DNA of 32,316 bases, filler included, from Stegostoma tigrinum (lineage: Eukaryota): NCBI RefSeq assembly GCF_030684315.1. It is 2 parts of 2 records of this genome, joined end to end, with 100 filler letters (N's around TTAATTAATTAA, not from the genome) between each part and the next. Parts side by side here need not be neighbours in the genome. Positions count along the whole stretch, not along the records: positions 1 to 13,569 come from NC_081396.1; 1 more part is not named here. One strand, 5' to 3'. Within the stretch, counting starts at the first letter, position 1. Every line of letters begins with the position of its first letter. Position numbers and translations under genes: made by a program. Shown one piece after another: positions 4,066 to 8,100 of the stretch. Under the pieces are notes generated by a model. It was not told where the DNA came from. It was given only the letters and a program-made list of their open reading frames with translations, and did not search any database.

Positions 4066-5003
4066 TTTCTCTGATGAGGAGACTGTCGATTTGCTTTACT
4101 ATTAATTATTAATATTGTTTGAAGTTCTTTGCTTTCCCTGCATCGTTTCTGCACTTGCTGAACTCAATTGGCGTCATTCAGTTTACTGATTGATTTAAAA
4201 CATTATATCCGTTTGCAATTGTCTGAATTACTGACTGAAGACAGAAACACAAAAGATTTGAGGATGAAAACAAAAATGCAGCATTTTTTTCGCATTGTTT
4301 TTATTTAAAGTCAATTGTAGTAATAAAGTAAGTTAAGTCTGTTCTTACCATCCTCAATCAAAATACAATTTGGGTCTAACATCTCAAAATGCCTAAATGA
4401 TTAGCTTTCATGATTGATTGTAAAGTTATTATTAGGCACAATTATAACGCGGTAACAGGTGAACATTGACCTAATTTTGTTTCTAACTGAAAGTGAATAA
4501 TCAATGTATGAATCTGACTGGTCTACTGTAAAGTGCTCGCAATTGGCATGAACAGGAAGGATGTTCAGATTGGAATAATTTGAATTGCTGCTAAAATCTT
4601 GCTCAAATTTATATCTTGTGAAGTTCCTCAACTTTCAATTAAATCTGCTGTTTTGGCTTCTGATTTCAATATAATATAATAATTAGCTTGTTTGATGGTG
4701 AGCAGCTTTCATGGATTCTAGTTTGAAACTTCATTAACGATGTTACAGTTCTGATGAAAATGCCTGCAGAGTCAATTCTGCTGCAAGCACATTCCTGTCC
4801 CTCAATGTTGTGATTTGGTGATTTTTGCTCTCTTGAGAAGATAATACGTTTGGGGGTATCAACGTTGTGATATTTGTGAAGCGGTTTCTGGTCTCTACAA
4901 CGTTTTACCATTGTTTACATGATTGGTGACAGTAAAACGGTCGAGTTTTCTCATTGAATGCAAACAAAATGCAAGTTTGCTCGCTGAGCTGGAAGTTTAG
5001 TTT

Positions 5004-5044
5004 TCAGACGTTTCATCACCATTCTAGGTAACATCATCAGCGAG
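5004..5044 (-). ncRNA. Minimal type I hammerhead ribozyme motif (minus strand)
   Basis: Reverse complement reads ctcg-CTGATGA-t-gttacc-tagaat-ggtgat-GAAA-cGTC-tga: core boxes intact, stem II present, GUC cleavage triplet. Confidence 0.65.
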
Positions 5045-5068
5045 CCTCTGACGGGCTTCGTCGCAGGC

Positions 5069-5108
5069 TCACTGATGACGTTCCCTACAATGGTGACGAA
5101 ACGTCTGA
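5069..5108 (+). ncRNA. Minimal type I hammerhead ribozyme motif (plus strand)
   Basis: tca-CTGATGA(5072-5078)-cgttccc-tacaat-ggtgac-GAAA(5098-5101)-cGTC-tga. Stem II is partly mismatched. The next tandem copy (5125-5163) has GAAAC mutated to AAAAA. Confidence 0.55.
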
Positions 5109-8100
5109 AGGCTTCGTCGGAGACTCACTGATGATGTTACCTAGAATGGTGACAAAAAGTCTGAAAACTAACCTTCCAGCTCAGCGAGCAAACTCACATC
5201 CAGAACATCAACCTGAGCTACAAATCTTCTCAAAACTCGCCAACAAAACGCGAGTTGAAATTTCCTGAAGCCTATTATTAGGAGAAAGCAGACGGCAAAA
5301 GATTGAAAACTAAGGAGAAACAGAAAACCTAAGGAACAATGATTAATTTGATGTCACTGTGCCTGATTAAATGTAAACGATGACTTGCAATCAACTCTTT
5401 CGATCACAGGATGTTTCATTATATAGTTTGCAAGTCACCGAGGAATGCGAATCGAATTTCAAAATTATAATGTTCCAATCTTGTTCTTGAGCAAAAAAAA
5501 ACCGTAACGGTGGTCAAGAATCACCGCTCCACTCCGTCATGTATTTCAAACATATTTTCTGGATGGGAACGTTAATTGGCAAAAGGATAATTCGCAATTC
5601 TTCTGAAATACTGAGATGAAGAACAGACCTATTTCAATGCTTTGAACAGTTTAACAAATAACTGATATTAATTAATCGTTATATCCTTGAGTCAACAAGA
5701 TTTGTAGGAATAAAAACAAAACTTTAACTTAATGATTTAGTCTGCACAGCTGTCTACTTTTTCCCAATCCATGTAGTTAAAATGTACCCAGTTGTAATTT
5801 ACAACGCCGTGTCAACTCAAGGGTGACTCATTCAGATTCAACTGATGCCGTGGATTATGTGACCAATGCTCGAGTGTGTATTAATTACAGTTATCCAAGC
5901 ATGAACGCATCATGTGAAAGCTTGAGCAAATGCATAAAATGCCTTGTATATCAATGTGTTGAGACATGTGCAGAGTTTACTATTTTGCAGAAGCAATAAG
6001 TACAGAGTGTGAGAACACATTGCTTATTTCAAACAGGAAAATTGAACATTATTTACTTCAATTAATGTACTAGAGAAATTGTTGCGACTTCGCCATCTGA
6101 AGGATATTGTTCGCATTAGGTGAATGCAATTATCATTTATTCAGACAGGAGGTAAATTGGGCAATTCCCGGCAGAAACACCTTTTAAATTCATACATTTA
6201 AAAAAAACCTTATCCTTCACTGAAAAGCAGCTCATAAGACAATTAACTCGGCATTTGGAAACAAACCTAACAGGAAATACTTAACTTCGAATTTCAACAG
6301 AAATTGTTTTCCACACTATAACTCAATTTGTTTCTGTACAGTGTGTGCAAAAACTCCAAATTTAAAGAACTGTTTTAAGAAAATACGAAATTAATTTCGA
6401 TAATTAATCATTTCCTCTTGACTTTTGCTTAAATTAGTCCAATGTCCCGTCTCAATAATTTGGTTTGTCATAATGTCTTATGAAATGTATTGAAGGAGTA
6501 GGTAATCTCTGTTCAATGTGAAAGCATTCCCTTTCCTGTTAATACTTATCTGCGGACCAGTTTCTTTGAACAAAGTTAAATTAGAGTTAATATGTAATAT
6601 TTTACATGGATTAAATAGATTTATTAACGAGGTTCAAAACTGTTGCATAGTTTGTGCCTGTGCTACTTCTGACCACCTTGACAAGTGGCCTTAAACTTTG
6701 TCAATCTTCTGGTTTGGTCTCCAGTAACTGAAGCAATTCATTTTCATCTGGTGCTTCAAAAATTCTTTTATCTGCCATTATATAATGCTTACTTGGCCCC
6801 TCGGAAATGAAAACCCTGACCAAATCACTAAAATCAGAGTGAACAATACAGAAATGAAAGACAGACTGCAGGTGTTTTGAAATCGGTTGTGAGAAATAAT
6901 ATAACTGCCTTTAGAGTTACTTTTAATTGAGTGAGGCAGTTGAAATAGCATGTAATTTATTTCATTCCTCCCTCAGTTTTCTGTTCCCTGTTTGGGGACA
7001 CAATGGGTAATCAGTATTCATTGTGCATCTTATCATTGGAGTACATATCGTTGGTTGTTCATGTTACTGGTAAAGGTTAAATTAGGCTTCAAAGGATTTT
7101 ACTGCATTTGCATTCGAGCAGATCATGTGATGCAGCAACACAAATTGTTAGTTTTATTCCATAGTAGTTCCTCAACAGTTTGTATGATTCAAGAGGACTA
7201 TCAAAGTGCATTTAATTAATTTGTGAAATATTACTTCTACCGTGAAATGACTCTACAACTATTCGTGGTTGCTGAAAGGTTTTAATAGTTAACATGGTTT
7301 GTGTACTGTCAAACAGTTGGTCTGTATTGTCTCGTTAGTGTCGAGCTGATGGTGTTCTGGTCTCTTGTGGTGTGGTGGTGGTGTCCCTGAGTTTGAGATA
7401 TGTGGCCCGTGTTCAATTCCAATCTGTTGCAGTGGTACATAATGCCATCTAAAAACAATTTAAATTGGAAATTAAAAACACTTCGATTTCTTTGAGTGTT
7501 GTTGGAATTCCAAAAACAGATGCCTGCTTCAATCGCTGACTTACATAGCAGATGGAATTTGGGCGGGGAGGGGGAATGGGGTGATACTTTTATATTAAAT
7601 AAAAACAATGTTTAGGCATGGAATTTGGGCGTCACTAGTGGGGTTAATTCAGTTTTGCGCCACAGAAATTCCTGCTTCTGGCTTGCTCTTCCATCAATCG
7701 CATTAAAAAGATTCCCACTATTAATGGCCTCAAAGAATACTTGAGGTGACAATATTGAGCTTATCTTAATTTTATTCCAACGAGCATTCTATCTTAACAG
7801 GAGAGATTGATTGTTCAGGAGGATAAGGTTTCCACTGTATCCATCACTTGCAGCGAATAGTGGCAGATATTCAGTTAATCTTCAGTTTATGCCTCAGTTC
7901 GCCCAGTACGTCTCCTAAGAACACTTTTTTTTATTCAGCAGAAGCCATGTTAACTCATTCAGAGTCGAACCCAGTCGGTGTGAGTTCCCATGCCAGGAAA
8001 AAATGAAAACATTTTGCTGAAGCAAGGTGTACTGGGCTCGAAAGTGTATATTTGTTTTCTCTCTTTAGGAGCTGCCAGAACTGCTGAGGTTCTTCAACAA

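Follow-up and report, generated by a model that had tools for sequence, protein, structure and literature searches.

A decaying stub of a probable Penelope-like element, with three hammerhead motifs, in a heavy-chain J-C intron of Stegostoma tigrinum

The heavy-chain cluster and the anatomy of the cassette

The window (the whole stretch of Stegostoma tigrinum DNA that was analysed, 32,316 nt with its filler) contains an immunoglobulin heavy-chain cluster in which V-set and C1-set domains flank a long intron and which, with two D segments and a J identified by sequence, reads V-D-D-J-C. PDB and Atlas searches with CH1 returned an Ig C1 domain only, without distinguishing IgM from IgW. We take the similarity of this exon to be IgM-like rather than IgW-like. 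The V-D1-D2-J layout is the basis for IgM over IgW, according to excerpts of PMC5192425. Truncation of the cluster after CH1, suggested by the lack of any other C exon, was rejected, as an artificial spacer (13570-13669) joins a different scaffold there. The cassette studied here lies 1,562 nt past the J donor and 7.7 kb ahead of CH1, so that its placement inside the IgM J-C intron by the first-pass annotation holds, with IgM assigned from the layout and the presumed CH1 similarity. The features are as follows.

1815-3401, plus strand: V exon of the Ig heavy chain, followed by D1 near 2534-2547, D2 near 2947-2959 and J at 3354-3401, from domains and sequence
4963-4977, plus strand: target-site duplication, left copy, 15 bp; the final 4 nt (4974-4977) match the inverted arm as well (microhomology)
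4978-5053, minus strand: unit A, putative inverted Penelope-like end module without tail; counterpart 5115-5190, 7 differences in 76 nt
5007-5040, minus strand: minimal hammerhead motif A, with all core letters kept; G10.1-U11.1 is a wobble and helix I opens with a G-U pair
5054, plus strand: single extra G at the joint of inverted arm and unit B; another letter stands at the equivalent place of the family
5055-5109, plus strand: unit B, an additional copy of 55 nt that runs from the presumed start of the RNA to a point 4 nt beyond the hammerhead cut site
5072-5105, plus strand: minimal hammerhead motif B, whose core is undamaged; stem II holds a C-U mismatch and helix I has 3 bp
5110, plus strand: second single extra G, preceding the same family base as the G at 5054
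5111-5241, plus strand: unit C, putative main Penelope-like stub (5' leader, hammerhead, ORF start, tail), of a family very abundant genome-wide
5128-5161, plus strand: minimal hammerhead motif C, with changes at G12 and at position 15.2, each in a CpG site, and AAAA replacing GAAA
5131-5241, plus strand: first 37 codons of a putative Penelope-like RT-GIY-YIG ORF; start codon overlapping the hammerhead core and the start of stem II
5203-5241, plus strand: 'tail' of 39 nt (A+C 69%), confined to the direct arm and lying between the two points, behind 5202 and behind 5240, where family copies end
5242-5256, plus strand: target-site duplication, right copy, the 15-mer pairing with 4963-4977
12956-13252, plus strand: CH1 exon; the cluster ends at the artificial assembly spacer 13570-13669

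The inverted arms of about 80 bp and the extra tandem unit described earlier were recovered as arms of 85 nt each (4969-5053 and 5115-5199; 89% complementary, spacing 61 nt), a second pairing of 51 nt (5003-5053 with 5059-5109; 86%, spacing 5 nt) and a direct tandem of 56 nt (5054-5109 and 5110-5165; 88% alike). The units differ at 7 of 76 positions (A against C), 7 of 51, and 7 of 56 (B against C). The flanking 15-mers agree at 13 of 15 letters, both differences being of CpG type as previously claimed, and none of 20,000 random flank pairs reached this agreement, even with 11 x 11 registers tried per pair. The centre of the cassette is a near-palindrome with a 5-nt loop, in which only 4 bp are paired before mismatches.

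Folding of the RNA from 4963 to 5256, as the first-pass annotation had proposed, gave -155.2 kcal/mol (z = -16.9), a value matched by none of 200 shuffles. Among 59 sampled 294-nt windows of the intron this was by far the most stable fold (next best -83.8, median -63.4).

Hammerhead motifs, predicted fold and AID hotspots

Our motif descriptor was built on the published minimal-hammerhead consensus (CUGANGA-H, helix II, GAAA, palindromic pair, NUH, helix I of at least 3 bp). It matched three times in the whole window, at motif A, motif B and a site at 14005, and not once in 200 simulated windows. One antisense and two tandem sense motifs, the last with a broken GAAA, are thus present as had been noticed; A and B show the features of the minimal type I hammerhead of Penelope-like elements (PLE min-HHR), and C lacks them. 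The suggested Infernal search told otherwise: no Rfam hammerhead model reached its gathering score over the window, nor was a hammerhead among the four matches with E <= 10 in 4700-5500; the cassette motifs have no helix III. Matches to mir-1178, mir-1814 and a snoRNA (E 0.15-7.4) were rejected, being far under their gathering scores.

Each motif carries lesions. By its letters and by established hammerhead rules, motif C is predicted to be catalytically dead; unit B has 4 private changes, one of which disrupts a stem II pair; and at motif A and its edge the family letters at 5015 and 5041 are unlike those of the window. By analogy with the dimer topology in PMC4209133, each core of a double hammerhead would cut the site of the other copy. 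The cut expected after 5105 on the plus strand would therefore need the core of unit C, whose GAAA is broken with the loss of G12, so that self-cleavage of the cassette is unlikely in this model. Formally, only a cut after 5161 could still occur, by way of a helix III that contains a mismatch.

The fold points the same way. Forcing the double hammerhead costs 26 kcal/mol in units B and C alone and 74 kcal/mol in the cassette; as these energies omit tertiary contacts and were computed with no intact-copy control, only the difference between contexts is meaningful. When the growing RNA was folded, unit B paired with arm A in all prefixes tested, from 5075 to 5140. Since the antisense arm is transcribed first and would trap unit B at once, a silent hairpin is the likely one of the two outcomes that the first-pass annotation had offered, and the other, self-cleavage, is unlikely given the lesions in all motifs. 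The predicted silencing hairpin would be a consequence of how the element inserted and is no sign of regulation.

That the cassette, acting as a tandem double hammerhead, cuts IgM pre-mRNA and thereby tunes the expression of heavy chains appears extremely improbable. Two sense motifs do lie 56 nt apart, motif B keeps all its core letters, in vitro cleavage is low for dimeric min-HHRs (PMC4209133), and the ribozyme of PAc, the Poseidon element of Anolis carolinensis, works in the presence of its protein (PMC11167929). Set against this are the dead core for the 5105 cut, the G-A mismatch in helix III and the C-U mismatch in stem II of B, the roughly 48 kcal/mol that arm A adds against the active fold, and the finding of no RNA-seq read ends at the PAc cut site (PMC11167929).

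A co-opted role of the cassette as a hairpin or homology patch focusing AID breaks and inter-cluster IgH switching is likewise very improbable. In its favour, the cassette is the strongest fold-back of the intron, several cluster copies carry it, and AGCT density exceeds that of 97% of intron windows, on 3 sites only. In sharks, which are described as having no switch regions, V regions switch between clusters, and a role for secondary structure has been suggested in S regions (portions of PMC4279169); our search for shark switch junctions returned reviews only. Against it, an intronic copy is to be expected of a family that lies everywhere in the genome, the arms have drifted by about 9%, more distant cluster copies appear to be without the cassette, and hotspot densities are ordinary, 22% (WRC/GYW) and 56% (WGCW) of 184 intron windows being as high. 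A switch region is a kilobase-long tract of AID-hotspot-rich repeats; the cassette measures 264 nt. The earlier suggestion of a cruciform or break hotspot accordingly finds little in its favour: the centre pairs over 4 bp, WRC/GYW motifs are ordinary, the cassette persists in several cluster copies, and switch regions are absent from sharks in the account given in portions of PMC4279169.

With its three ribozyme motifs damaged and folded shut, the cassette is most likely an ordinary inert passenger under this model. As one of very many repeat copies whose ribozyme motifs are broken and hidden, it is probably irrelevant to antibody biology.

Family membership and insertion history

Translation of 5131-5241 gave a single match among 1.84 billion representative proteins, a fluke protein (E 8.7e-6), which led to the N-terminus of a complete reverse transcriptase protein of 824 aa (P0009). 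Residues 1-37 of P0009 match the 37-codon stub at 49%, and tblastn with P0009 found one place in the whole window, 5134-5244 (E 9e-5). Pfam called RVT_1 alone in this protein (43.8 bits) and not GIY-YIG, the GIY-YIG-type motifs of its C-terminus having been read by eye only. Two of the three long matches in the search that yielded P0009 were inspected: P0009 is a complete Penelope-like ORF, and P0008 was rejected as such an ORF, being a chimeric model with a Penelope-like N-terminus at its end. A word-indexed protein search with a 45-aa peptide yielded no candidate, and Pfam found no domain in this peptide or in P0002 and P0003. Scanning metagenomes gave 0 matches to a 26-nt degenerate pattern and 45 loci with an 18-nt pattern, none of them alike beyond 23 nt, which makes them chance matches.

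The family is abundant. In four of the 20 listed sequencing runs, representing three organisms, 13,660-15,760 contigs per run were placed on 4400-5800 (4/4 runs). Summed depth in run X1 was 0.58-3.4 million over the arms against 60-250 over the flanks, a depth that is no copy number. Family ends pile up behind 5240 (4/4 runs) and behind 5202 (runs X1 and X3), 38 nt apart, and the inverted arm ends at the equivalent of 5194-5199. A pseudo-LTR (pLTR) holding the ORF start, a dispersed multicopy family, and a one-sided tail with an inverted adjacent copy were all found. On this protein-level match and genome-wide abundance, the Penelope-like origin proposed earlier is upheld; the cassette reads as an insertion of the end module of an endonuclease-bearing Penelope-like element, linked by sequence through fluke proteins over 37 residues. 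A literature search joining Penelope, shark and Poseidon found nothing; subscription papers, Repbase and Dfam lay outside it, so the shark family may already be catalogued. Nor did the open literature yield anything on horizontal transfer of Penelope between shark and trematode.

Contigs that start at 5219-5223 and continue into the right flank were found with 0, 13 and 17 differences in X1 and with 0, 13, 13 and 17 in X3. Judged by these sequences, the insertion is common to three to four diverged cluster copies, more distant copies appearing to be without it. A 2,379-nt paralogue contig aligns exactly up to 4977 and then departs from the stretch, two long contigs break off, one at 4966 and one at 4977, and among the joints listed one runs from 4899 to 5252 with unknown letters between; no clean empty site, with the flanks joined across a single 15-mer, was among those listed. 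Flank coverage in organisms B and C was too thin for a judgement on orthologous sites. Later duplications of the IgM cluster would have carried the insertion along, and the cassette is usable as a presence/absence marker ordering these duplications.

Very probably, then, the cassette is an old germline insertion of a pseudo-LTR stub from an endonuclease-bearing Penelope-like element, now in decay and presumably without a role of its own in the antibody intron. The steps by which it arose can be proposed tentatively, from the junctions of one locus. A GIY-YIG endonuclease would have cut both strands 15 nt apart, the length of the duplication; two-strand cutting and extension have been seen in vitro for PAc (PMC11167929). 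From the bottom-strand end, reverse transcription would have set out at the distal one of the internal starts, 111 nt inside the ORF, and the top-strand end, pairing at 7 of 9 letters with 5191-5199, would have primed near the proximal start to give a second copy in opposite orientation and without tail. On reaching the RNA 5' end at 5111, the first cDNA may have gained a G, switched once more to a template and extended through unit B, acquiring another G, after which the two cDNAs would have been joined head to head. In pre-mRNA the product would form one long hairpin that hides the damaged hammerheads and is removed with the intron.

Alternatively, the inverted arm may have come from self-priming (fold-back) on an antisense template, as for rotifer Penelope, and not from a second target strand; we regard this as rather unlikely. 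Sections of PMC3846280 interpret head-to-head palindromic junctions in this manner, and the near-palindromic centre with its 5-nt loop would suit it. The outer end of the inverted arm, however, overlaps the duplicated target by 4 nt with 7 of 9 letters paired and lies 3-8 nt from the proximal end point of the family, and PAc extends both target strands in vitro (PMC11167929).

Both sense units begin at the same base, behind the TATA-like box of the family, each with an extra G, a pattern suggestive of reverse transcription up to the capped end of an RNA, primed on both strands of the target. It is conceivable, if still doubtful, that these junctions preserve a stage of the Penelope cycle not yet described. 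In it, a TATA-type pLTR promoter would yield capped RNA whose start lies 20 nt upstream of the ORF, the two cut target strands would serve as primers at the internal starts on either side of the tail, and the reverse transcriptase would reach the cap, adding the extra G, and could jump again. If so, head-to-head copies with a one-sided tail would be explained without an antisense template, and the hammerhead cut would not define the template ends. Should unit B instead be a later tandem duplication by slippage in DNA, within an ordinary fold-back stub, the two extra Gs would be one event with little bearing on a cap. Such duplications are common, a 5-nt TCTGA match stands near both ends today, and the identical 5' start of B and C would need no template jump. 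Yet the TCTGA match is offset by 57 nt, not 56, requiring two further changes, and part of it was created by a CpG change in arm A; moreover, the B-C differences are at least as many as those of A (7/56 versus 7/76), which makes unit B as old as the insertion, and we think slippage improbable on balance. Very many such stubs exist in shark genomes, in which junction counting could test the model of capped RNA and two-strand priming.

Comparison with known systems

The motifs share with PLE min-HHRs, above all those of Clonorchis (PMC4209133), CUGAUGA, an extra unpaired base, a 6-bp helix II with a 6-nt loop, GAAA, the palindromic C-G and a 3-bp helix I, and resemble the two Clonorchis motifs in the supplement of that paper; a search of one supplement file (other than file 1) turned up no named shark motif. 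Unlike those hammerheads, all three copies here are damaged and trapped by an antisense arm. Non-LTR retrozymes (bioRxiv 10.64898/2026.07.22.740005) likewise consist of tandem type I hammerhead units from Penelope-like ends, the shortest families measuring about 51 bp. By definition an active one has two or more consecutive tandem units, each with a complete hammerhead; in the cassette unit C has no G12, the units are unequal, a complete motif is present in only one of the tandem pair, and the entire insertion is a fold-back bounded by a target-site duplication (TSD).

With the 5' inversions of L1 twin priming, as described in parts of PMC12016303, the cassette, as modelled above, shares two opposed cDNAs primed from both target strands, a TSD of about 13-15 bp and microhomology at the second priming site. 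L1 cDNAs, in contrast, overlap by a median of 12 bp; those of the cassette share 76 nt, since both would begin at internal positions close to the 5' end of the RNA, and leave no poly(A) tail. Our literature search on Penelope-like elements with twin priming, non-templated bases or template jumps returned no relevant paper, L1 and U6 papers only.

The published Penelope-like layout has an inverted pLTR, a tail on one arm and a TSD of 8-10 bp (PMC3846280 and PMC8557442, in the portions available). Like Pen2a_Av of Adineta vaga in the same portions, the cassette has a head-to-head inverted end module, a tail on one arm (30-40 bp in Pen2a_Av), a pLTR with the first ORF codons, a TATA-like box and a TSD. 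It differs from what these portions of PMC3846280 describe in having no ORF body, with about 130 nt per arm, an extra 55-nt unit, a single G at two junctions, and a TSD of 15 bp against the 8-10 bp of the rotifer examples. The origin of the inverted-copy-plus-tail layout is called still undefined in a passage of PMC8557442, and the cassette junctions fit a simple two-strand priming model for it.

A term search of the PMC11167929 text on PAc found no discussion of inverted genomic copies, a cap or TSDs. The PAc ORF starts at stem II, and its reverse transcription sets in 111-118 nt inside that ORF (PMC11167929); in the cassette, too, the ORF starts at stem II (5131), the insertion ends at +111 in the ORF, and an A+C-rich tail is bounded by two end points.

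Anatomy and setting of the cassette

The first-pass annotation had described positions 4963-5256, in the intron between the Ig J and CH1 exons, as a palindromic cassette in which inverted arms enclose an extra tandem unit, flanked by a 15-bp target-site duplication (TSD) with differences only at CpG positions. Both the repeats, as computed, and the flanks agree with this description.

Repeats and units of the cassette
4963-4977 and 5242-5256: TSD
4969-5053 and 5115-5199: inverted arms, 85 nt, 89%
5054-5165: direct tandem, 56-nt unit, 88%
4978-5053, minus strand: unit (arm) A, the inverted copy
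5055-5109, plus strand: unit B
5111-5241, plus strand: unit C, the main stub

Between the two flanking 15-mers, 13 of 15 positions are identical, both changes being of CpG type, and none of 20,000 random flank pairs matched as well. In an alternative pairing, the left arm would join the first tandem unit through a loop of 5 nt, and the plus-strand fold of the cassette reaches -155.2 kcal/mol (z = -16.9). Unit B carries private changes at 5064, 5079, 5083 and 5088, all four to C, which may reflect a different template molecule or chance.

The host cluster is probably IgM. Its V heptamer, J nonamer and J coding sequence (2121-2159, 3315-3401) deviate from the consensus, and for this reason the cluster may rearrange poorly. 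The V-D1-D2-J-CH1 order of the locus is the layout of cartilaginous-fish IgM (PMC5192425). After CH1, the cluster ends in the window at an artificial spacer (13570-13669; 100 nt, in which a 12-nt linker with stops in all frames sits between two blocks of 44 N) that joins two unrelated scaffolds, so that sequence to the right of 13669 is not to be assigned to the IgM cluster. Beyond the spacer, GC rises from ~0.37 to ~0.48. F-box/WD40 coding pieces, presumably beta-TrCP-like, are scattered at 14798-15073, 17113-17505 and 31728-32264 (-), with F-box and WD40 assigned by Pfam; some span would-be exon borders, which suggests a fragmented processed copy. A C-rich minisatellite (27/54/81-nt) and long 22-nt AG-rich arrays with N gaps occupy 14435-14815 and 27201-30972.

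Family and protein evidence for a Penelope-like element

Contigs from 4 of 20 listed sequencing runs, representing three organisms, were aligned to 4400-5800 (13,660-15,760 aligned contigs per run). In run X1, summed depth on the arms was ~10,000-fold above that of the flanks, a ratio that is not a copy number. Among the loose ends listed, copies of this family depart from the cassette sequence behind 5240 in all four runs and behind 5202 in X1 and X3; the 38-nt interval between these end points is the tail of a Penelope-like element (PLE). The tail is present on the direct arm, and the inverted arm ends at the position corresponding to 5194-5199. Each end point is directly preceded by a similar 8-nt motif (5190-5197 and 5233-5240), and the duplicated target (5250-5256) is complementary over 7 nt to the distal one, giving a small hairpin that spans the right junction.

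An ORF starts from the ATG at 5131, within the hammerhead core, and gives 37 codons as far as the right duplication. Its peptide (5131-5241) had a single match in a set of 1.84 billion protein representatives. This match, a protein of a liver fluke, led on to P0009, a fluke protein of 824 aa with an RT domain and with GIY-YIG-type motifs read by eye. Residues 1-37 of P0009 match the stub at 49%, and its sole tblastn match in the whole window is 5134-5244. All relatives found at the protein level for the start of the ORF (P0002, P0003 and P0009) come from liver flukes, at 38-51% over 36-41 aa; this may reflect an old fluke-shark transfer or just that shark repeats are masked in the protein sets. 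The Penelope-like origin proposed at first pass is thus upheld by the 37-codon match to a complete RT protein, the abundant family, the tail, the inverted copy and the TSD.

Paralogues and a proposed route of insertion

Units A and C differ at 7 of 76 positions (four of the seven at CpG sites), A and B at 7 of 51, and B and C at 7 of 56. In the list of the eight longest pieces per run, X1 has three contigs (0, 13 and 17 differences) and X3 has four (0, 13, 13 and 17) that start at 5219-5223 and extend ~170-200 nt rightward, and the insertion appears to be common to several cluster copies. Two contigs (1,609 and 2,379 nt, 81-87% alike) follow the left flank to 4966 and exactly 4977, and then run for >1 kb without the arm; among the joints listed, one contig joins 4899 to 5252, the intervening letters being unknown. 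These contigs are compatible with an empty site, short of proof.

A staggered cut would leave two 3' ends, one priming at the distal internal start to give unit C and the other near the proximal start to give arm A. This second end can form base pairs with 7 of the 9 positions of 5191-5199. A rival origin for arm A is antisense self-priming (PMC3846280). The two-strand route was compared with L1 twin-priming (PMC12016303). Upstream of 5111, the family sequence (113 and 89 contigs; agreement 0.73-0.74) is not that of the window, and a TATA-like box lies 29 nt before this base; the internal promoter of D. virilis Penelope is TATA-less (PMC2377424), and the TATA reading therefore does not apply generally. 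Units B and C both start at the same family base, preceded by a single G that the family lacks. Reverse transcriptases can copy a cap, and this G would reflect copying up to a capped RNA 5' terminus and a subsequent template jump. Unit B, for which slippage is a rival origin, ends 4 nt beyond the hammerhead cut site, so a cleaved RNA would not be its precise donor. Within the open-licence literature, we found no paper naming the shark family or giving the cap and two-strand reading.

Hammerhead motifs, predicted activity and known systems

A descriptor built from the published minimal-hammerhead consensus matched, in the whole window, motif A (5040-5007, minus), motif B (5072-5105) and one unrelated site at 14005, and had no match in 200 simulated control windows. 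Motif C (5128-5161) was rejected through loss of G12; antisense and sense motifs, the last with a broken GAAA, had indeed been read here. The suggested check with Infernal and Rfam returned no hammerhead, either at gathering score over the window or at E<=10 over 4700-5500; the motifs lack helix III. Two minimal-hammerhead-like motifs outside the cassette, at 19506-19533 (+) and 14005-13976 (-), belong to other repeat families, have a short stem II and each terminate an apparent retroelement remnant.

According to PMC4209133, monomeric minimal hammerheads showed no cleavage and dimers weak cleavage. From dimer topology, we infer that the palindromic four bases of both copies would pair, so that each catalytic strand would cut the other copy; the cut anticipated after 5105 on the plus strand would then require motif C, which lacks G12, and is unlikely. 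For motif B to cut after 5161, helix III would have to form despite a G-A mismatch and stem II despite a C-U mismatch. The energy penalty of this double-hammerhead fold is 26 kcal/mol within 5054-5171, against 74 kcal/mol within the cassette; the usable number is the 48 kcal/mol difference, since tertiary contacts are not part of the energy model and there is no intact control. When folded in transcription order, unit B pairs with arm A while emerging. Of the two outcomes envisaged for the pre-mRNA, the silencing hairpin is therefore the one the models predict, with unit B trapped by arm A, while self-cleavage appears disfavoured by its fold and by the damaged motifs.

A cruciform or AID break hotspot had also been envisaged; only 4 bases pair at the cassette centre before mismatches begin, AID hotspot density is ordinary apart from three AGCT sites, and several cluster copies have retained the cassette. 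Identity as a switch region was rejected, as was that of an active retrozyme as defined in bioRxiv 10.64898/2026.07.22.740005. Because sharks do move V regions from one cluster to another although they lack switch regions (PMC4279169), the cassette may have a role, with low probability; nothing here points to one.

Overall, the cassette is a well-preserved example of a known insertion type, a PLE stub on all tested features except a displayed empty site. It shares the PLE layout published in PMC3846280 and PMC8557442, namely an inverted adjacent copy, a tail on one arm, an ORF start within the end module (pLTR) and a TSD. Its motif resembles the hammerheads of Clonorchis PLEs (PMC4209133 supplement). 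In PAc of the anole (PMC11167929), the ORF runs from stem II, reverse transcription begins 111-118 nt inside it, and the element cuts and extends both strands of the target; similarly, the present stub ends at +111.
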